From an uncultured virus (IMG/VR IMGVR_UViG_3300002170_000002) (Duplodnaviria; Heunggongvirae; Uroviricota; Caudoviricetes): a stretch of DNA of 20,000 nt. Of the stretch, positions 1 to 20,000 are shown piece after piece. The stretch lies in the IMG/VR virus record IMGVR_UViG_3300002170_000002, positions 45,786-65,785 of that record; one strand, given 5' to 3'. The notes under the pieces were generated by a model. The model saw nothing but the letters and a program-made list of their open reading frames with translations, made no database searches and had not been told where the DNA came from. The first letter of the stretch is position 1, and each line of letters begins with the position of its first letter. Both the position numbers and the translations under genes were made by a program.

Positions 1-782
1 GCCACCCTCCTATCATTGCGAAAGGCTTTGGTCTTGAGTACAGCTACCGTTACTAAGTTCCCATAGGGATTCTCTGCACTCTTGGCAATAACCTTTCTTT
101 TCTCATCAATGTAATCTCCTCTCTTGGTTTGTAGTCTAATAGAACACGTATGCTTCCATGCATTTCCTCCTGTTGTTTGGACTCCACCCCCATAGGAAAT
201 TACATCTCGAACTTGGTTGATGCCGATTAAAGTTGTACCATATTTTTTGCATAAACCTACAGCTTGTTTAGAGAAATTAGTGAGGGCTTTGGCTATCCCT
301 GCCATTGTATCCTCTTCAATGGTTTTCTCTAAAGCTTGTGCAGATACTAAAACCCCAATAGAGTCAATTACCATGAGAGATACTTCTCCTGTGTCCAACA
401 GCTCTATTGCTTTGGAGAATATCCATTCTGCACTTTGATTGGTGGGGGATAAGAGAATTAGTTTTGATATATCTACCCCTATCTTCTCTGCCCAGTTGGC
501 ATCTAAGGTATTCTCTGCATCAATATAGACTACACTTTTATCTGGGAATTTTCTTTGTGCATTGGCTACTAAGTCTAAAGAAAGGGTAGTCTTACTGCTA
601 CCTTCTCTCCCACTTATTTCCATTAAGATTCCGCTGGGGATACCTCCATACGTCATCCATTGAAGTTTGGGGGAAGAGAAGGGGATTTTATTTTCTGCAT
701 AATAGTTTTTAATTCCTAAGGTCGCTAACTCCTCCCCCATATCTTTATTAATCTTTGCTATTAAGTTGGTTAATTTACTCAA
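1..782 (-). CDS. recA: RecA-family recombinase (runs off the left edge, C-terminus missing)
   Basis: Not in the ORF track; translated by hand from TTG at 782 (AAGGTG upstream): MSKLTNLIAKINKDMG...IPFSSPKLQWMTYGGIPSGILMEISGREGSSKTT...VYIDAE...LMVIDSIGVL...LIGINQVRD...TTGGKAWKH. These are RecA Walker A/B and loop motifs. Confidence 0.95.
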   Translation of the reverse strand, partial: MSKLTNLIAKINKDMGEELATLGIKNYYAENKIPFSSPKLQWMTYGGIPSGILMEISGREGSSKTTLSLDLVANAQRKFPDKSVVYIDAENTLDANWAEKIGVDISKLILLSPTNQSAEWIFSKAIELLDTGEVSLMVIDSIGVLVSAQALEKTIEEDTMAGIAKALTNFSKQAVGLCKKYGTTLIGINQVRDVISYGGGVQTTGGNAWKHTCSIRLQTKRGDYIDEKRKVIAKSAENPYGNLVTVAVLKTKAFRNDRRV

Positions 783-812
783 CCTTTCTCACCTTTTCTC
801 TCCCCCTTTGTA

Positions 813-1070
813 TTACAGAAACTCCATCTCTTCAGGATTTAAGTCATACCCAACAACCTTAAACTCAGTACTTTCTCCCAACCCATAGTGGGCTTTCATA
901 TTGGCTTCTAAGTTATTGTAATAGGTGGCGGCAATCCTTGCATTCCTTAGGCTGTCATAAACCCTTGCTTTTTTATTAATGGTGGTGTCGTAGAAAATAT
1001 CTCCATCTGGTTGTCTATAAACGGCTATGACTCTGTATACCCTTCTTGGGAAGTGCTTAAACTCTTTCAT
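813..1070 (-). CDS. hypothetical phage protein (85 aa)
   Basis: AAGGAG RBS before the ATG, co-oriented and tightly packed in the operon. Confidence 0.8.
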   Translation of the reverse strand: MKEFKHFPRRVYRVIAVYRQPDGDIFYDTTINKKARVYDSLRNARIAATYYNNLEANMKAHYGLGESTEFKVVGYDLNPEEMEFL

Positions 1071-1081
1071 ATTTTTCTCCT

Positions 1082-1606
1082 TTAATCTTCAATTTTTTCT
1101 TTGTTTAGGCTTAACTGCTTCTCCACAATTCTGGAAGTGAGAATCTTCTTACAGCTGTTCATCATTTCCATGGCTGTATCTGCTCTGTGCTTTAGTTTCT
1201 TATGTGCATTACTATAAGCAATATTTAATAATCTTTCTTCTGTACTCTTTGCTTCCGCTGTAGATTTCTTGACTGTGTCTGTGCCTGTAGCTTTGAGTAG
1301 AGTGTCATTGTATTTATCTCGTACCATCTCTCTGGCTATGGCATCCTTTAGAGCCACACTCTCTGCCTTGGCTCCTGTGTAATAAACTAACATAGGAATA
1401 GTGAGAATCACTCTCTCTAATTCTGAATCCAATAGGTCTCCTTCTTCCATGAAGGAATACACTACACTCATAAAGCTATCTAACTCTTGGGCATATTCTT
1501 CTACTATCTTTTCTGTCAGTTCTTCTAATTGCTTATGAGATTCTTCTAACACAAAAGCTGTGTCTTTGTTTCTTTCTTCTGCTACTTCTTGGGATAATTT
1601 ATTCAC
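1082..1606 (-). CDS. helical/coiled-coil phage protein, possibly a recombination mediator (UvsY-like role, speculative)
   Basis: GGAGG RBS, GTG start, predicted all-helical, lies between recA and the resolvase; function inferred from context only. Confidence 0.6.
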   Translation of the reverse strand: MNKLSQEVAEERNKDTAFVLEESHKQLEELTEKIVEEYAQELDSFMSVVYSFMEEGDLLDSELERVILTIPMLVYYTGAKAESVALKDAIAREMVRDKYNDTLLKATGTDTVKKSTAEAKSTEERLLNIAYSNAHKKLKHRADTAMEMMNSCKKILTSRIVEKQLSLNKEKIED

Positions 1607-1627
1607 TTCTTTCCCTCCCCCATTATC

Positions 1628-1855
1628 TTAATCCATTAAGTCTGCTAAGGGGCTTACATAACGTACTGCATAGAATTCATCATTTCCATAAAAGTTGTCT
1701 GATTCTTCAATGGCTTCTCTGGGAATATAGTCATATTGTTCTTTCATAAAATCATACACTAATTGCTTTGCCTGTTCCCTTGAAAAACTTATCACAGGGC
1801 TTACGTTTACTAAAGAGCTATTAAGCACCCAGACTTCTTTATTCATATTGTTCAC
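1628..1855 (-). CDS. hypothetical phage protein (about 72-75 aa)
   Basis: AAGGAG RBS, overlaps the end of the resolvase gene. Confidence 0.75.
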   Translation of the reverse strand: MNNMNKEVWVLNSSLVNVSPVISFSREQAKQLVYDFMKEQYDYIPREAIEESDNFYGNDEFYAVRYVSPLADLMD

Positions 1856-2423
1856 GCAACCACACTCCTTTCTCTAATTTTCCAAACTCTCTGGCTAAAT
1901 CAAATATATTTGATAGGTCATATTTATAGTATTTCTGCTTCAAGGTTGCATTCAAGGGAATTACCTTTAACTCACCCTCCCTAACCATTTTCATAGACAA
2001 GGTTTTCCTTCCACTCAACCTATGTCTTGCTAATTCATCTACTGGTACTGCAAAATTTCCATCTTCCTGCCCAATAAACCAAAAGAAAAATAGTGAATAC
2101 ACCCCACCTATCTGATGCTTATTAATTAGCCCTGCCCATTGATTGGGTCTTATGTCTCCATTGTATCTGATATGGGTTTGCTTCGTTGTCTTACATTCTA
2201 CAAACAATAGAGTAGGTTCCTTGAAGGCTATAAAGTCTGCAATCTCACTGGTTTCTTGGAAGGTGGAAGAGAATCTATCTTTCGCATCCTTGATTCTATC
2301 TACACTACATCCTTCTACTTCATTAAAACCTGTACGAATTGCTTTCTCATATTGCTTCCACTCCTGTACTCCTCTTTTCCTTCCTCTCTTTCCTTGTTTT
2401 TTTGTTACCTTTTTCTCTGCCAC
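1839..2423 (-). CDS. RecU-like Holliday junction resolvase (PD-(D/E)XK nuclease)
   Basis: Motifs YEKAI, IADFIAF, FVECKTT and IRPNQW match the RecU E..D..ExK..Q pattern; near recA. Confidence 0.8.
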   Translation of the reverse strand: MAEKKVTKKQGKRGRKRGVQEWKQYEKAIRTGFNEVEGCSVDRIKDAKDRFSSTFQETSEIADFIAFKEPTLLFVECKTTKQTHIRYNGDIRPNQWAGLINKHQIGGVYSLFFFWFIGQEDGNFAVPVDELARHRLSGRKTLSMKMVREGELKVIPLNATLKQKYYKYDLSNIFDLAREFGKLEKGVWLREQYE

Positions 2424-2447
2424 TCTCTCACCTAATTAAATATCTGA

Positions 2448-2780
2448 TTATATATCTGTTGTAATAATTCTCTCATACTCTAACCACTGGTTGGCATCTC
2501 CTTGCTCTACCTTTGCTATTTCTAAAATAGAAGAGATTAATACTACCTCATCTTTATGGGAGAAGAGGAAACTTGTATATGCTCTATGCCAATACAATAA
2601 TAATATTCCTTCCCTCCCATCTTTTAGTGTAATTTTATCTCCCTCTGCCGCTGCTCTAAACGAGTTATCAGATGCACAAATACCTTGGTGAGCTTTTATT
2701 CTTGCCCTACCAAATCCCTTGCCATGAATATGTCGAATATGAGCCTTTGCTCTCTTTTTCTTCTTCTCTTTCTGCTCCAT
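2448..2780 (-). CDS. hypothetical protein (110 aa, basic N-terminus)
   Basis: Co-oriented ORF filling the operon. Confidence 0.7.
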   Translation of the reverse strand: MEQKEKKKKRAKAHIRHIHGKGFGRARIKAHQGICASDNSFRAAAEGDKITLKDGREGILLLYWHRAYTSFLFSHKDEVVLISSILEIAKVEQGDANQWLEYERIITTDI

Positions 2781-2784
2781 TCCC

Positions 2785-3153
2785 TTAGTGGATTTCTATA
2801 TCAGGAGATTGAGGTGGGTCTGGAAGGAAGCTGGATTGGTGGATGTCTCTTTCATGTAGAGGGGTCTTTCTAAATCTATCAATCAAGGCTCCTACTACTC
2901 CTCTCTCTACTCTGGGAATTGTAACCCAATATCTTTCCCAACAAATGGCTTGGTTGAACCTAAGTAGGGGGATTTCATAGACTACATCTTCTTTGTATTT
3001 TATAAGGATTGTTTCTCCATCTGATTCTGTACTGAATTCATCTAAGGAACCTACCTCGGTTTCAAACTCTTCTAAGGTTAAAGTTCTAACAGTGTTGTTC
3101 ATCTCTTGCATCTCCTCTGCTTCAATTCTCTTTAGTGCTCTTTTCTTATTCAT
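2785..3153 (-). CDS. hypothetical protein (122 aa)
   Basis: AAGGAG/GAGG RBS, start overlaps the upstream stop. Confidence 0.75.
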   Translation of the reverse strand: MNKKRALKRIEAEEMQEMNNTVRTLTLEEFETEVGSLDEFSTESDGETILIKYKEDVVYEIPLLRFNQAICWERYWVTIPRVERGVVGALIDRFRKTPLHERDIHQSSFLPDPPQSPDIEIH

Positions 3154-3373
3154 CCTCTTCTCCTTTGGTTCCTTTCCTTGTCTTTCTTACTACTCTCTCT
3201 CCTGTGTCTCTATCCACTTCATACCCCATTCTATAAGTCCATAGGGGGCAATCAGTTAGGATACATAACTCTACTTCTTTTCTTTGCTGGCAAGTACAAT
3301 CTAAGCATTTGGCTCTAATGGCTTGACCTCTGGTTAATCTCCTGCTTTTCTTAGGGGTTGTTTTCTTTGTCAT
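3146..3373 (-). CDS. small Cys-rich putative Zn-binding protein
   Basis: AIRAKCLDC...EVELC...CPLWTYRMG; GGGAG RBS. Confidence 0.75.
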   Translation of the reverse strand: MTKKTTPKKSRRLTRGQAIRAKCLDCTCQQRKEVELCILTDCPLWTYRMGYEVDRDTGERVVRKTRKGTKGEEDE

Positions 3374-3388
3374 AGTATCTCCCTTTCT

Positions 3389-4198
3389 TTATTTTGCTTC
3401 ATCACAGTAAATTTTATATCTACAGTATCTACAATTGGATGAACTGGGCTCTGCTATCGGTTCTTTGTTTAGAGCAAAAGCCTGCTCTGCAATCTGGATT
3501 CTTTTTAGGATGATATCTTTTTGTTCCTCTGTAGGTTCAAACACATAGGCTTTCTTTAGGCATCTATCCCTGTTCTCATAGAGAAACATAACCTTAGGGA
3601 TTTCAAAAGCGATAGAGTAAACGGTTGCTTGGTCATAATGGTCTGGGTCTACTGCTTTTCTCTTATCCCATTTCTTGGAGGTCTCTGTCTTTATCTCTAA
3701 AATAAATAACTCATCCATAAATTCAATGATACCATCACAACGAAAGGATAGGTGTCTTTCTTTATCAAATAATTGTAGCTCCAATCCTTCTCTGTCTCTG
3801 ATTTCTAAATGGTCTAAGTTATTCTCTTCAATATACTTCTCAACATCCACCCATTTAATCTTTGTAGATTGGGCAATCTGATGTTGTAATCTATCATGTC
3901 TATCTGTGCCACTCTCTGTAATTCCAATCATATGATGCTCTCTTGGAGTGGGGTCAGTCTCATACCCACTTCTTTTGTAGAACATATTCCTTGCACATTT
4001 CATAGAGGAAGGGGCATAGGCTGTGGAGGGTATTCTTTGTACATCCTGCTCCTGAATACTTTCCATGAGGGTTGAAAGAAAACTATACGCATATCCTCCT
4101 CTGGTTTGCTTATCCTTTCTCTCTTCCCTCCATTCTTCATACCCCTCTTCAGTAGTTTTATCCTGAAGTTGTTTGATTATGTCTCTTGGTTTAGCTAT
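3389..4198 (-). CDS. Cas4-like / PD-(D/E)XK exonuclease with four-Cys (Fe-S type) motif; start probably ATA at 4198, not ATG at 4066
   Basis: PSSMKCARN, GTDRH, RCDGII, LEIKT, YDQATVY and C-terminal CRYCRYKIYC; the frame stays open upstream of 4066 to an AAGGAG at 4214-4209. Confidence 0.85.
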   Translation of the reverse strand: MAKPRDIIKQLQDKTTEEGYEEWREERKDKQTRGGYAYSFLSTLMESIQEQDVQRIPSTAYAPSSMKCARNMFYKRSGYETDPTPREHHMIGITESGTDRHDRLQHQIAQSTKIKWVDVEKYIEENNLDHLEIRDREGLELQLFDKERHLSFRCDGIIEFMDELFILEIKTETSKKWDKRKAVDPDHYDQATVYSIAFEIPKVMFLYENRDRCLKKAYVFEPTEEQKDIILKRIQIAEQAFALNKEPIAEPSSSNCRYCRYKIYCDEAK

Positions 4199-4213
4199 GT
4201 CAATGCATCTCCT

Positions 4214-5263
4214 TTACTTTTCTCTTACGCCCATCACAACTATCTTCACTGTCTCATCTTTATTGTAAGCAAATAACATATCTTGATGTACCAGAATATA
4301 TATCTCTTCTTCTAATTCATCTAAGAAAGAGATGAAGGTCTTTAGATGCTCTGTGGCAAATGTAGCTTGCACTTCTTCTCCCTCTCCCCTTATATCAATC
4401 TCCCTGCATCCATTTTGTGCTAATAACTCCAGTCTATAAGGCGTTCTGTTGAACGATAGGACTTCGGGAGCGTTGTAGGTCATCTCAGAAATTGCATCTT
4501 TTAACTCGGTGCTGCTGACCTCCCAGAAGCCTTCTTTAGATAAGAAAACATTCTCAATATCCTGATAAGGGTAGTCTTTGGTAGGGTAGTTCCCACAATA
4601 GATAGAAGTATCTTCATGATTGATAGATAAAATATTCTCTGCATACTGTAAAATCTTTTCATCTCCTAAGAATGATTTCCCAATTTGATGGGGGATAAGA
4701 AAGCTCTTCGAGATAGGGTTATCCAACATCACCTTCGCAATGATGTAATTGTTCGTTGCATACACCCCCTCATTCGACACAAAAAGATTATTTAATTGGG
4801 GGATAGGAGAATCAGATAATTGTAATAACTTAGGTAATAGTTTTTGATTCCTCCCACCCTCTAATGATAGGTCTGCAATCTCTTTTATCTCCCCCTCTTT
4901 AGGAATAGGGGTTGCGGGTACAAATTCATTCCCTGTATCTACATAAGCAGGAAATTCATGAGAGCTGCTTCCTGTCTTTAGAGTAATAAACCCTGTCTTA
5001 TAACTAAGGGTAATCTCTTTGCTCTTTAGTTTTCTAAGAAGAGCTGTGAAGTCTTTGAAGTTAATTGATACGCTGGCTTCCCCTTCAAAAGGAATGTCAG
5101 CTAAGAAGATAGAAGTAACCTCTTGATTGGTTACAGAAAACTTTACTCTTCCTTCTCCCCCTTCTATCCCTAACATCTCTGCAATGGGGAGGAAAGAGAA
5201 AGTCTTAACAGAAATACTATCTCCTAATATCTTTAATTGTTTTACTAAATCATTTGCTTTCAT
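4214..5263 (-). CDS. divergent DNA polymerase III beta sliding clamp-like protein
   Basis: 349 aa; VTNQEVT, SINFKDFTALLRKL, VYATNNY (compare VATDG) and DYPYQDIENVF (compare FPDY..VI) recall DnaN; one small gene away from the polymerase. Confidence 0.7.
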   Translation of the reverse strand: MKANDLVKQLKILGDSISVKTFSFLPIAEMLGIEGGEGRVKFSVTNQEVTSIFLADIPFEGEASVSINFKDFTALLRKLKSKEITLSYKTGFITLKTGSSSHEFPAYVDTGNEFVPATPIPKEGEIKEIADLSLEGGRNQKLLPKLLQLSDSPIPQLNNLFVSNEGVYATNNYIIAKVMLDNPISKSFLIPHQIGKSFLGDEKILQYAENILSINHEDTSIYCGNYPTKDYPYQDIENVFLSKEGFWEVSSTELKDAISEMTYNAPEVLSFNRTPYRLELLAQNGCREIDIRGEGEEVQATFATEHLKTFISFLDELEEEIYILVHQDMLFAYNKDETVKIVVMGVREK

Positions 5264-13516: not shown

Positions 13517-15865
13517 TCACCTGACAGGGCATACTCCAGATGCACATTCAGGGTCAGACTCTATATCCAGTTCTAAATCTTCAAACTCCTCTTCATTCTT
13601 TTCATACTTCTGAATTAGGTTGGGGTTAAAAGGTTTCAGTCCTTTCTTCATCTCTTTATATTCTTCTTCTGAGATAGCTTCATAAGGCATGAGCTGGTAG
13701 AATCCTCCATCATCTGGTAAGAAGGAAATACCCACATAACTATCCCAATTATTCCATAGCCATTCCTCTACATCATCCCACTCATCTGGTTTTACAGTCA
13801 CAGTGATGGATGTATTTTGGTCTGTGTAGAAATCTTGGAACATCTTATAGGTTTCTAATTGCTCTACAGCTGTGAAGGAAGATTTGGTTCTGGTCACCCC
13901 ACTTTCCACAGGGAATTCTACTACTTTGGTATTTACATTTTCCCCTTCTTGCCCTACTTCATTCTTAACTACCCAACCCAATTCCTCACAAACTTTGACA
14001 AGAGGGTCAGCTGCGGAAATTCTGATTCTTCTGATAAAGAATGGGGCATGAGATGCATGAACTCCCGGGCTTACCCCTCCAAAAATCAAGCCTAAAGTAC
14101 CATTGGGGGCTACAGTGGTTACATTGGTGGATTCATTTAGGTTGTGGGTCTTGGCAATCTCTTTGTTAGCTTTATGAGCTACTTCTCTAAGGGAAGAGAG
14201 AATCTTTTCTTGTTCCTCTTTTGTAATATTCGTTCGCTCTACAAAATCTTTCCATCCAGTGATTCCACATCCAGTGAGTCTGTGTTCTTTTTGTACCCTA
14301 TCCCATGTGGGTAGTTCAAGGTCTACCAACGTCATTCTATACCCAGCTCTGGCTGATAGTTCTTGTGCCCTCTTAATCTTCTCTAAGTCATAACTTCCTT
14401 TCTCATCTACAAAAGAAGAGATATTTAGGGAGGTGAGGTTGCAGCATTGTCTGGACTTCAATAAAATTTCTCCACAAGCGTTGGTTCCAGCAAACTCAGG
14501 GAATCTTTTTCTGGCTGCTTCTCCATTAATGATTCCCGGCTCTGCTGACAGTACCATAGTTTGGATAATGTCTTTTAGTTTTTCTCTGGTAGGTTTCTCA
14601 TCAAATATAATACTGTTGTTTGACATCATTCTATGCAGTAGTTCTTCATTGGCTTTCCATTCCCCTTTCTTTTCATCTACCACATAGATATTATCTTTGG
14701 CATGAATCATTTCTTCATCATCTGGGTCAATAAAAGATATGCAAGCACTTCTTCTTACTGCTCCTGATACTACATTTTCTGCAATGGAAGTACAAATATC
14801 CAGTACATCAATGGGTTTTAATTTCCCCCCACTTTTAGTAATGACTTTGTGAATCTTGTTGAACATCTTTTGGAGAGGCTCACTTCCACTGGCAAATCCA
14901 CCAAACTTCATTAGTCTTTCTCCAGCAGGTCTTACATAATCATAGTCAATGATAAGGGTGTCAATAATTTTGTAAGCGTGCTGGGTATGAATTTCCATGA
15001 AGAAATCTAAGGCTTTGTGGAATCCTTCTTTGCTATCACCAATGGTTAAGGTGGCTACATTCTTATCTACAGTAAGCTGTGTGACATCTTCTCTGTCTTT
15101 CTTTTCTACAAAAGTCCATTGCTTATTCACCAAAGAAATGTCTGTGCGGAACTCTGGTAGTTTGTTTACGTATTTCTTTTGTGCCCCAATACCAATCCCC
15201 ACTCCCAACATGAGAACATAGAACATCTCTCCAAAAATATAGATATCGTCTACTGCTGTAAAAGAGCAGTTGAAGTTTTGTAAGGAAGATATTTTGGAGA
15301 CTGGGCTCCCACCTGTGAATAGAGTTCTCCCACTAAGCTGTTGTCTACCATGATAAATGTTGTCAAACAATTCTTCTGCTTCTTCTTTTGTGCTGTAGGG
15401 AGAAAGGCTAATATTATAATCGACTGCTCTGGCAATGGATTCCCAGAATCTTTCTCTTCTCCCCTCTTCAGGAAGGTATCTACTATACGTCCTGTAGAAG
15501 GTGAAGCTTGCTATTTCATTGAGGGGGTCAGGAAGATGTTTATACTTGCTAAGAAACTCTTCACTAAGAAATTTGTATTTCCTTTCCTTCCCCGCTTTTC
15601 TTAATCGATTCTTTTTAGAACGATACTCAATATAGTTCTTGGCTGTTTTGTAGAATCCTCCTGCCATTAACTTCTGCTCTACGAAGTCATGGATGTCATT
15701 AACGGAAGGTAAGCCCATTTCTTTGCAATCTTTCTCTACTTCTTTGGCAATTCCTTTTATTTTGTCGGCATCTATCTCTTCTACATCTGCTGAAATGATG
15801 GCATTTACAATTTTATCTTTGTCAAACTTTTCGGTCTTTCCATTTCTTTTTAGTACTTCTAACAC
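13517..15865 (-). CDS. nrdJ: class II (adenosylcobalamin-dependent, monomeric RTPR-type) ribonucleotide reductase with N-terminal ATP cone
   Basis: ATP cone VLKRNGKTEKFDKDKI...YIEYR; FYRTYSR, NFNCSF, VRPAGERLMKFGG, VRRSA, GTNACGEI, CNL, TTVAPNGT; C-terminal CASGVCP redox pair; no beta subunit gene. Confidence 0.93.
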   Translation of the reverse strand: MLEVLKRNGKTEKFDKDKIVNAIISADVEEIDADKIKGIAKEVEKDCKEMGLPSVNDIHDFVEQKLMAGGFYKTAKNYIEYRSKKNRLRKAGKERKYKFLSEEFLSKYKHLPDPLNEIASFTFYRTYSRYLPEEGRRERFWESIARAVDYNISLSPYSTKEEAEELFDNIYHGRQQLSGRTLFTGGSPVSKISSLQNFNCSFTAVDDIYIFGEMFYVLMLGVGIGIGAQKKYVNKLPEFRTDISLVNKQWTFVEKKDREDVTQLTVDKNVATLTIGDSKEGFHKALDFFMEIHTQHAYKIIDTLIIDYDYVRPAGERLMKFGGFASGSEPLQKMFNKIHKVITKSGGKLKPIDVLDICTSIAENVVSGAVRRSACISFIDPDDEEMIHAKDNIYVVDEKKGEWKANEELLHRMMSNNSIIFDEKPTREKLKDIIQTMVLSAEPGIINGEAARKRFPEFAGTNACGEILLKSRQCCNLTSLNISSFVDEKGSYDLEKIKRAQELSARAGYRMTLVDLELPTWDRVQKEHRLTGCGITGWKDFVERTNITKEEQEKILSSLREVAHKANKEIAKTHNLNESTNVTTVAPNGTLGLIFGGVSPGVHASHAPFFIRRIRISAADPLVKVCEELGWVVKNEVGQEGENVNTKVVEFPVESGVTRTKSSFTAVEQLETYKMFQDFYTDQNTSITVTVKPDEWDDVEEWLWNNWDSYVGISFLPDDGGFYQLMPYEAISEEEYKEMKKGLKPFNPNLIQKYEKNEEEFEDLELDIESDPECASGVCPVR

Positions 15866-17898: not shown

Positions 17899-17941
17899 AC
17901 ACCACTATAAAATTGACAAAACCCATTTTTGACTGTATAAT
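17899..17941 (+). promoter_or_regulatory. perfect-consensus sigmaA promoter with upstream ACACCACT box and no downstream gene
   Basis: ACACCACT-ataaaa-TTGACA-17 nt-TATAAT. Confidence 0.8.
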
Positions 17942-18129: not shown

Positions 18130-18165
18130 ACACCACTTGACAAATAGAAAGATATGTGGTATAGT
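18130..18165 (+). promoter_or_regulatory. sigmaA-type promoter with extended -10, convergent with the lysis genes
   Basis: ACACCAC-TTGACA-17 nt (ending ATATGTGG)-TATAGT. Confidence 0.8.
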
Positions 18166-18183
18166 ATAGATGGGGAGGAAAAG

Positions 18184-18213
18184 AAAAAGGAGATGAGCTA
18201 GTTCTCATCTCCT
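18184..18213 (-). terminator. Rho-independent terminator of the lysis operon
   Basis: Perfect 10-bp stem AGGAGATGAG/CTCATCTCCT with a U-tract on the minus strand, just downstream of the holin stop. Confidence 0.85.
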
Positions 18214-18250
18214 AATTTAATAACTTTACATTCAAGATGTAAAGAAGAAA

Positions 18251-18862
18251 TTAATCTCTGGATTGCGTAGGAATGTTTCCAGAACCTTCATCACCCAACG
18301 TTTCTCGAATGGCTTCTACGTCCTCATCATTACCTACATAATCCTCCTCTACTACATCCACAGGCACATCATGTGCATCCTCCCCAAATTCCTCTTTATA
18401 TCCTTCATCAGGGAGTTCTTCAGGATTTTCACAATCCTCTTGAATTGGTACAGCAACAGGAACTACCTCTACATCACCATACTTTTTAGATTCATTGATT
18501 TGAGATTCAATCTCTGATTCAATAAATACCGTAAAGTCTTTGTGCATCTTTTCAACAGCTGCCCTGCCTTCAGCATCTACTTGCTGTTCTACCAGTTTCT
18601 TAGTTCGATAGAAAGCTTCACGCATTGCTTCCTCATCAAACTTTCCTTCCTTCTTCAGTTCATCAACAAATCGTTGATTGGTGAAGTTAATGGAACGGGC
18701 AATGGTTTGTAGTACCATTTGTACATTTTCTCGTACATCTTCATTCTTAATATTCTCCGTTTTCTTTAGGAAGAAATTAAGAGCTACCAGTACCAGAGCT
18801 ACCAGTGCAGGAGAAAGTACAGCAATGGCAATTCCACCCAAAAATCCAACATCCAAATTCAT
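18251..18862 (-). CDS. holin (LL-H-like, single N-terminal TM) with long acidic tail
   Basis: N-terminal hydrophobic helix, then TNQRFVDELKKEGKF...IESEIESQI; AAGGAGG RBS; in the endolysin cassette. Confidence 0.75.
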   Translation of the reverse strand: MNLDVGFLGGIAIAVLSPALVALVLVALNFFLKKTENIKNEDVRENVQMVLQTIARSINFTNQRFVDELKKEGKFDEEAMREAFYRTKKLVEQQVDAEGRAAVEKMHKDFTVFIESEIESQINESKKYGDVEVVPVAVPIQEDCENPEELPDEGYKEEFGEDAHDVPVDVVEEDYVGNDEDVEAIRETLGDEGSGNIPTQSRD

Positions 18863-18888
18863 AACATTACCTCCTTATATTTTATTTT

Positions 18889-19215
18889 CTAACCCTTAGC
18901 ATTAAAGGGAACAGGAATAAATTCATTTTCCCAATCTTTTATCTTTCTATTATCTGCAATAAAAGCATTTACTGTACTCTCATCTTCCTCTTTTCCTACC
19001 CCAACTTTAATGAAGGTATAATAAGGATAGATGTTTTCATTCCCTACATAGATGATTCTCTGGAATAGTTCTGTAGGAGTCATCCCATAGTCAAATTGTA
19101 CAGCACCACTCACTTCTTTAATGATTTGATTCACATATTTTTGGTGGGATGCCTGAAGAGTAAATACACCAAATCTGGGTTGCATCTTGAGCAACTCTAC
19201 TTTTCCTGAAGCCAT
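18889..19215 (-). CDS. stand-alone homolog of the endolysin C-terminal (CD27L/CTP1L-like) domain; exact start uncertain
   Basis: Ungapped alignment with the endolysin C-terminus, 13 of 45 residues identical. Confidence 0.6.
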   Translation of the reverse strand: MASGKVELLKMQPRFGVFTLQASHQKYVNQIIKEVSGAVQFDYGMTPTELFQRIIYVGNENIYPYYTFIKVGVGKEEDESTVNAFIADNRKIKDWENEFIPVPFNAKG

Positions 19216-20000
19216 TTCGTGACCGCCGCATCTGTTTCTTTGCGATTTTCGCCCGACAAATGAATCGTCGCCTTGTCGTCTTTGGGCCCGCCTACCTGGA
19301 TGATCTCCTTGTAGTACGCCGGATTGACTCGGCTTGCATCCACCAGCACCGCTCCTTCCACCTGCGAAACGATGCGCAACACACCGCCTAAGTCTGCCGT
19401 GCTTTTTGCGTACACGCCGATGTGGTAGGGCGTGGGCGTGTCCGGTGCAGGAGTTTCGGGCTCATCGACTACAAGCACCGGATCAAAGCGGTCGAGGTTG
19501 TAATCCTTGATGCGCTTCGTCAGCGTCTGTGCATACGTCGGGCTGGTCGCATACGTGCCGGTCAGCGCATTGACCGCTACTTCCCACGACTTCGCTGTGT
19601 AGACGGGCTTATAAAGCTGTACCCGTGTCGGCGTTGATCGGAAAAACTCGCCATGATCCTTGACGCTTTCTTCCCACGAATTGTATTTTCTAAAAGCGGC
19701 ATCGACCTTGACGTACTGGCCGTTCACAAACTCGCTTGTGCTTTTCGTGTACTTCTCGCCCGTCCACGGTGCGCTTGCCTTGATGCCAAAAAGATTATTC
19801 GCTTTCCGGGCCAATTCCGAATTTCCGTTTGCACTTTCGACCATACCTTGCGCAATCGTCACGCTGGGCAAGATGCCCGACTTCTTGTAGTCCGCCTGTG
19901 CCAAAGGTGCAAGAAAGTCTATAAATTCTTCCGGCGTCCACTCCTTATCGCTCGACTGATGATAAAAAGCCGCAAGTGTGTCGGCTGTGGCTTCGGCTAC
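19197..20000 (-). CDS. endolysin: GH73 glucosaminidase + Pro-rich linker + CD27L/CTP1L-like C-terminal domain; N-terminus lies beyond the window
   Basis: GILPSVTIAQGMVESANG, ANNLFGIKA, FRKYNSWEESVKDH, YATSPTY; frame open to the right edge (VAEATADTLAAFY..., resembling the end of an Amidase_3 domain); C-terminal IIQVGG...SGENRKET. Confidence 0.9.
   Translation of the reverse strand, partial: VAEATADTLAAFYHQSSDKEWTPEEFIDFLAPLAQADYKKSGILPSVTIAQGMVESANGNSELARKANNLFGIKASAPWTGEKYTKSTSEFVNGQYVKVDAAFRKYNSWEESVKDHGEFFRSTPTRVQLYKPVYTAKSWEVAVNALTGTYATSPTYAQTLTKRIKDYNLDRFDPVLVVDEPETPAPDTPTPYHIGVYAKSTADLGGVLRIVSQVEGAVLVDASRVNPAYYKEIIQVGGPKDDKATIHLSGENRKETDAAVTKWLQEK

Follow-up and report, generated by a model that had tools for sequence, protein, structure and literature searches.

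Why would a phage carry, overlapping the end of its lysin gene, a second reading frame that encodes another version of the lysin's own C-terminal domain? The question is raised by a 20,000-nt stretch of DNA (here called the window), the final 20 kb of an uncultured virus's linear record of 65,785 bp; the end of the window is also the end of the contig. A preliminary description, made from the letters of the window, offered two answers. The small frame might be a separate, divergent gene that supplies a free binding domain to the enzyme as a partner or regulator. Alternatively, it might be what was left of the phage's original, AT-rich lysin after a GC-rich lysin replaced it.

The observations behind these proposals were reproduced. 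The small ORF aligns without gaps to the lysin tail with 13 of 45 residues identical, the two are homologous by BLASTP (E=4e-4), and their Smith-Waterman score was reached by only 2 of 5000 shuffles. The two frames do overlap, by the last 19 nt of the lysin frame (P0002, with its stop codon at 19197-19199), and P0002 itself runs off the end of the window. The step in composition is also real. The GC content is 0.55 in the lysin ORF, against 0.36 in the small ORF (~0.35-0.36, with a GC3 of 0.30) and 0.28-0.44 per kb in the rest of the 65,785-bp record, whose last ~800 bases stand at 0.54. Searches of Pfam and PHROGs returned no meaningful match for the small ORF or for the domain that ends the lysin, and the Atlas features of the small ORF were uninformative (0.75).

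Table 1. Features at the lysin end of the window and on contig L007 (window positions unless stated)
Feature	Position	Strand or frame	Basis
Small ORF (orphan, P0001)	18889-19215	(-)	108 aa as called
Holin of the AT-rich phage	18251-18862	(-)	phrog_13712, E=1e-18; directly downstream of the small ORF
3' junction and lysin stop	19197-19204	(-)	X5 contig departs at 19204; sequences of P0004 and P0008
Cassette part in the window	19197-19434	(-)	238 nt common with L007, 1 mismatch; GC 0.556, GC3 0.64
Foreign cassette in L007	6804-7073 of L007	270 nt, in frame after residue 385	GC 0.56, GC3 0.64
Candidate orphan starts	ATG 19215, TTG 19194, ATG 19185	(-)	anti-SD pairing -6.2, -4.3 and -2.8 kcal/mol; all weak
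Donor-family amidase end, GH73 and linker	19435-20000	(-)	PF01832, E=1.4e-31 (glucosaminidase domain of P0002); linker as in donor P0072

The preliminary description had also pointed to the clostridial endolysins CTP1L and CD27L, and the structural comparison bears this out at the level of predicted models. The model of the lysin-tail domain (pLDDT 92.5) and that of the small ORF (pLDDT 84.2) have strands and helices in the same order. For the lysin tail, Foldseek places CTP1L (4cu2) first, with E=2.5e-5 and a TM of 0.76, and VIA-align gives CTP1L (5a6s) a Z of 12.1 (rmsd 1.7, 79 aligned), CD27L a Z of 10.7, and the next unrelated entry a Z of 7.1. For the small ORF, the three best Foldseek matches are all CTP1L (best E=6e-3), and the CTP1L binding domain is again best by VIA-align (Z 8.5, rmsd 2.4, 75 aligned), though a dephospho-CoA kinase (7.8) and CD27L come within 1 of it and so tie with it. 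The support is weaker for the small ORF than for the lysin tail, and its assignment is backed by the sequence homology between the two domains, which are 22% identical. The two models are not fully independent, because each folding alignment held rows of the other type. Sequence searches of the PDB gave no link to CTP1L or CD27L; the link is visible by fold only. As modeled, then, both domains hold the binding-domain fold of the CTP1L/CD27L type.

The intact lysin and the foreign cassette

A cluster-mate of the small ORF, P0004, extends upstream in frame with a different N-terminus, and this N-terminus is the linker of a longer protein. That protein, P0008, has 489 aa, an Amidase_3 domain (PF01520) and a glucosaminidase domain (PF01832), and is 97% identical over all of P0004. 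Its cluster has 57 members, of which 15 are listed; 13 of these are 489 aa long, and the remaining two are P0010, a hybrid, and an N-terminal piece of 91 aa. In all 13 of the 489-aa lysins compared, the last 101 residues are identical to residues 8-108 of the small ORF at 96-101 of 101 positions, reaching 101/101 in P0008. The first few codons of the small ORF are DNA of the GC-rich cassette described below, read in another frame. In a run from another study (X5), a contig tracks the window between 18307 and 19204 before passing into the native linker; this is the uninterrupted allele. Judged by its sequence, the small ORF is the tail of the phage's own intact 489-aa lysin.

This leaves almost no room for an old, divergent paralogue that was maintained to supply a free domain to the GC-rich lysin, a reading to which we attach next to no probability. 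Such a gene would account for the homology, the shared fold and the overlapping frames, but it should be divergent, and the small ORF is not. The separately called homologues that were found are only P0001 itself, P0004 (which begins in native linker) and P0003, all at least 95% identical to the tail; there is only one free allele. Other short members of the cluster (P0022, P0045, P0049 and their kin) are N-terminal pieces or start inside the amidase domain, and none is a clean free binding domain. The domain is fused in the 13 listed lysins and also in the more distant P0006, P0007, P0009 and P0064; it is not conserved as a separate gene. Nor does the donor-type locus L001 carry a free domain; there, a methyltransferase follows the lysin. 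The proposal of a separate, divergent partner gene is not supported and is largely refuted, since the same sequence occurs fused in intact lysins. Fused relatives are also half of what the preliminary description said would favor a remnant, the other half being a lack of expression here.

How the tail came to be separated is seen on a metagenome contig, L007, that represents the same phage. It is 100% identical to bases 1-4621 of the genome and 99.9% identical to window 18212-19434, and it bridges the gap between the two ends of the 65,785-bp record. Its gene order runs from the native catalytic domains to an in-frame GC-rich cassette with a stop, then to the stranded native domain, then to the holin. 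The lysin that it encodes is P0010, a hybrid of 474 aa that has also been recorded from a contig of 66,784 bp. The first 385 residues of P0010 are native (367-383 of 385 identical to the 13 intact alleles), with a GC of 0.39 and a GC3 of 0.31; the stranded native domain has nearly the same composition (0.35 and 0.30), well below the GC3 of the cassette that lies between them. Here, the breakpoint is in an interdomain linker, the frame is kept, and composition changes in a step, which is what a shuffled lysin should display. P0002 and P0010 each have a complete binding domain at their end.

Lysins of 434-443 aa make up the family of the cassette, whose linker has an identical sequence in P0063, P0076 and P0082. 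The two donor-family loci examined are GC-rich (0.53). In trees of 23 chosen lysins and the small ORF, the catalytic part of P0010 groups with the native P0008, P0011 and P0013 (100/99), whereas its binding domain groups with the donor family (100/99, in a tree whose bootstrap is not fully settled). Trees and identities together thus give the two parts of one protein discordant ancestries. The donor-type binding domain is also found, 83-86% identical, on a quite different amidase-plus-glucosaminidase backbone in P0065 and P0067; this third backbone marks another, independent shuffle, and the domain must have moved more than once. The exact donor DNA had no match (0) in a pattern search of viral contigs, a genome scan with P0063 gave only two amidase matches at 33%, and GenBank phages held no match to the cassette domain and covered at most 52% of P0008. 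The lysin type suggests that the host is a Firmicute.

The native linker ends at the 5' junction, and native sequence picks up with the very next codons at the 3' junction; it seems from this that no native gene sequence was lost. The bases of the 3' junction read K-V-E in the orphan frame, where the intact alleles have K-E-E. None of the 22 complete donor-family proteins stops at the last residue of the hybrid, and past the stop the lysin frame continues for 22 sense codons. A single base change in native DNA may have created the stop, cutting off a tail of 22 out-of-frame residues.

In terms of sequence, an intact allele, a hybrid allele, both junctions and the discordant ancestry of the two parts are all in hand. 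We consider it highly probable that they record a recent natural swap of binding domains, in which the old native domain was stranded intact behind the new one, rather than an evolved partner gene. The ancestral lysin would have been one gene of 489 aa, with Amidase_3, the GH73 glucosaminidase, a linker and a binding domain of the CTP1L fold. Into its linker would have come, in frame, ~270 nt from a GC-rich phage family, carrying a short linker and a homologous but divergent binding domain, and deleting essentially nothing. This would yield the 474-aa hybrid, which pairs the native catalytic domains with a foreign binding domain. The native binding domain, pushed out of frame behind the new stop, would be the small ORF. 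The recombination would presumably have been non-homologous, in a shared host or host lineage, and very recent, and the new domain would be expected to change the wall polymer that the enzyme holds. The second idea of the preliminary description thus survives in part. The small ORF is a remnant, but not one left by replacement of the whole lysin, since the 270-nt insertion exchanged only the binding domain and L007 keeps the native catalytic domains.

The shuffling of lysins is, of course, well documented, though it is usually inferred from distant mosaics. This locus displays one concrete route, insertion into a linker with the old domain left in place, because the parent allele, the donor family, the junctions and the displaced domain have all been kept. 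It also provides a natural matched pair, a 489-aa parent and a 474-aa hybrid with catalytic parts that are 95-99% identical, in which the effect of a binding-domain swap could be measured.

Junctions, assemblies and the end of the window

Might the hybrid, cassette and orphan together, be a chimera of assembly or library preparation, with the intact 489-aa lysin the only one that exists? In the same runs, lysins of the donor family are abundant and polymorphic (binned depths reach ~2100, versus 83). The hybrid records possibly represent one community, as a single sample may have given L007, the window and the 66,784-bp contig, and a single campaign X1-X3. Such a chimera would, however, need two junctions that have only a few shared bases and yet fall in frame at a domain boundary. 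To our knowledge, k-mer assemblers do not create pairs of junctions of this kind. Further, the 3' junction is common to the window, L007 and four contigs that encode P0001. A 22-kb phage contig from run X1 has the junction bases of the window up to 19203 with 0 differences, and a contig from X3 is identical to window 18347-19231. Measured from the stop, the X3 contig extends 32 nt past the 3' junction; measured from the last base common with the intact allele, it extends 27 nt, and its bridge is borderline because 27 nt falls below a 31-nt rule. We therefore regard a chimera as quite improbable. These comparisons set assembled contigs against the window only, in 4 of the 24 listed runs (X1, X2, X3 and X5), all labeled as from a biogas fermenter or an anaerobic digester. 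Scans of viral contigs with P0001, P0008 and two DNA patterns from the sides of the junction returned no match, in a set that may omit records near the window's genome.

The last part of the window requires a different account. The window diverges from L007 at 19435, at the edge of the 238 nt common to both, and its remaining 566 nt (19435-20000) are absent from L007 and group with the donor family (100/97). Most likely, these 566 nt are a detour that the assembler took, through the shared cassette, from the phage into a co-occurring donor. Thus, what the preliminary description took for the GC-rich endolysin of this phage is probably not its lysin beyond 19434, where L007 has native, AT-rich catalytic domains. 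The locus is a caution in this respect: the GC-rich "replacement lysin" at the end of this contig is probably an assembly detour.

The window could instead be a real second recombinant, in which homologous recombination, using the 238-nt cassette, also exchanged the native catalytic domains for those of the donor. Only 19435-20000 would be concerned, and the idea is compatible with the domain swap favored above. The cassette is a plausible substrate for such recombination, and passages of PMC9371310 describe exchange of the whole lysis cassette between Lactococcus phages and prophages. Pieces encoding a GH73 domain identical to that of the window occur at phage-like depth in X1 (74-96, versus 83) and X2 (58, versus 63). 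These depths suit a second recombinant no less than a detour, and for this reason a second recombinant keeps a real, if distinctly lesser, chance. In X3, however, such pieces have a depth of 4-6, versus 36 for the phage contig, in an RNA library where this is weak evidence. The switch also sits at the edge of a shared repeat, the contig ends only 566 nt later, and among the pieces listed none joins phage DNA to 19435. Last, the 65,785-bp record, listed as 100% complete, is without the 2.2-kb native block of L007, where two ORFs lie together with the lysin's catalytic part, and has no Amidase_3 at all.

Possible expression of the stranded domain

If the small ORF is a stranded tail, it need not be made. 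Its three candidate starts pair weakly with the anti-Shine-Dalgarno sequence, when set against a median of -8.75 kcal/mol for the 24 genes of the window, -12.5 kcal/mol for the strong site of the holin, and -17.7 kcal/mol for the native lysin. Weak sites do occur, as 4 of those 24 genes score -4.5 or weaker. A hairpin over the orphan starts was considered as an argument and set aside, being not stronger than in shuffles (z +1.57). Presumably the orphan is expressed at a low level or not at all and will decay in time, although decay is not yet visible, because its frame is fully intact.

An internal start within the lysin must also be considered. The statement that the lysin linker of the window has no ribosome binding site with a start codon was upheld: two in-frame start codons are present, and neither has a Shine-Dalgarno match (-0.7 and +1.9 kcal/mol). 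The native linker is a different matter. Its Met just before the binding domain (window 19183-19185, the third candidate start of the orphan, at -2.8 kcal/mol in the window allele) is kept in all four native amidase-plus-GH73 clusters (P0007, P0008, P0009, P0064) and is absent in P0006. It lies 1-2 residues ahead of the positions aligned with CTP1L residue 195 and CD27L residue 186, where the free domains of 5a6s_B and 4cu5 begin. Because this Met is both conserved and close to those free-domain starts, the native gene may already use it as an internal start, and intact lysins may make a free domain. In the cassette linker of L007 (6813-6830), a GTG stands in frame just before the donor domain, preceded by a weak match to the Shine-Dalgarno sequence (-5.4 kcal/mol), and donor P0032 has a Met at that site; an internal start may have come along with the cassette.

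The same insertion has a bolder version, which we think unlikely. The orphan might still be translated and co-assemble with the hybrid, giving a heteromeric lysin that is newly arising from two genes and combines both binding specificities. The intact frame, starts that lie at the lysin stop or within 11 nt of it, and the conserved Met speak for it. So does a passage of PMC4777826, in which purified free binding domain joined the complexes of a CTP1L start-site mutant and modulated lysis. Against it stand the weakness of the three starts, the loss of the Met in P0006, and the 22% identity of the two domains, whereas CTP1L oligomers are built from identical ones. Further, the arrangement is seen in 1 of the 15 listed cluster members, and so the free-domain arrangement bears no sign of conservation. 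It is similarly doubtful, in our judgment, that a single step, the insertion, made a functioning system of two genes out of a one-gene, CTP1L-like lysin, with the native domain made from its old internal start, hetero-oligomerizing with the hybrid in a complex that binds two wall ligands. Were this so, the birth of a heteromeric endolysin would be directly observable, as a cheap way for a phage to try a new binding domain while retaining the old.

Known systems and the neighboring genes

The closest known relatives, CTP1L (5a6s, 4cu2) and CD27L (4cu5), share with the lysins described here a C-terminal binding domain of ~80 residues, of the same fold, behind catalytic sequence; the lysins here differ in carrying two catalytic domains, Amidase_3 and GH73. 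The enzyme here would thus act in the manner of modular Gram-positive lysins, with a binding domain of the CTP1L/CD27L fold. As passages of PMC4777826 describe it, CTP1L makes its free domain from an internal Shine-Dalgarno site and start within one gene and forms 2:2 heterotetramers, while the activity of CD27L and of CS74L is independent of the free domain. The free domain of CTP1L is thus an identical copy from the same gene. Here, the free frame encodes a different domain in another frame, stranded by an insertion and lacking a strong site.

The stranding is also what distinguishes this locus from the endolysin shuffling described by Smug et al. and Oechslin et al. Passages of these reports (bioRxiv 10.1101/2022.12.27.521992; PMC9371310) present endolysins as a hotspot of contemporary mosaicism, with recent exchange of modules between unrelated phages, and the recent exchange seen here, with the donor-type domain on other backbones, is of the same kind. 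The shuffling set out in those passages proceeds by replacement or by exchange of whole cassettes; here, there is insertion without deletion, and the parent allele, donor family, junctions and displaced domain are visible. Titles and abstract openings in the literature, with most subscription papers outside their scope, gave no account of an insertion that left the displaced domain behind.

A division of labor between two reading frames is, of course, known from PlyC, in which the catalytic subunit depends on another subunit for binding. According to a passage of PMC9371310, two gene products make up PlyC. If the orphan is made, catalytic and binding parts would lie in separate frames here too, but the lysin here has a binding domain of its own and the split is not conserved. 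A two-CDS lysin of Streptococcus phage Javan424 (L012 1495-2901) was rejected as a precedent; it is split early, into 324 and 1080 nt that lie 3 nt apart, and not before its C-terminal domain. The CD16/50L domain is described in PMC9045149 as CWB2-derived, dimerizing and polysaccharide-binding, and as anchoring the enzyme to wall remnants. The cassette domain is likened to CWB2 (PF04122) through its Atlas features only, which match CW_binding_2 clusters at 0.83-0.84 as a lead, and neither domain here has a Pfam match.

Several features of the neighborhood may be recorded. The C-terminal tail of the holin is long and very acidic, extending ~75 residues past the PHROG match (window 18251-18500). 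Facing the holin end are two sigma-70 sites on the (+) strand, at window 17913-17941 and 18137-18165, which match the consensus at 12/12 and 11/12 positions; in total, promoter-like sites are no more numerous than in shuffles. A terminator-like hairpin lies at window 18188-18213. The strain in X5 departs from the window at 18137-18307, between the holin and the large intergenic region, making this a second variable spot. On L007, positions 2985-4082 hold a tail-region ORF of 365 aa, the C-terminus of which presumably resembles retroelement target proteins; no repeat matching it was found in the genome or L007, so the idea of a diversity-generating retroelement was dropped. Finally, window 13517-15865 encodes a ribonucleotide reductase with an ATP cone and the insertion domain of the B12-dependent (class II) enzymes, within a replication module that includes a family A DNA polymerase.
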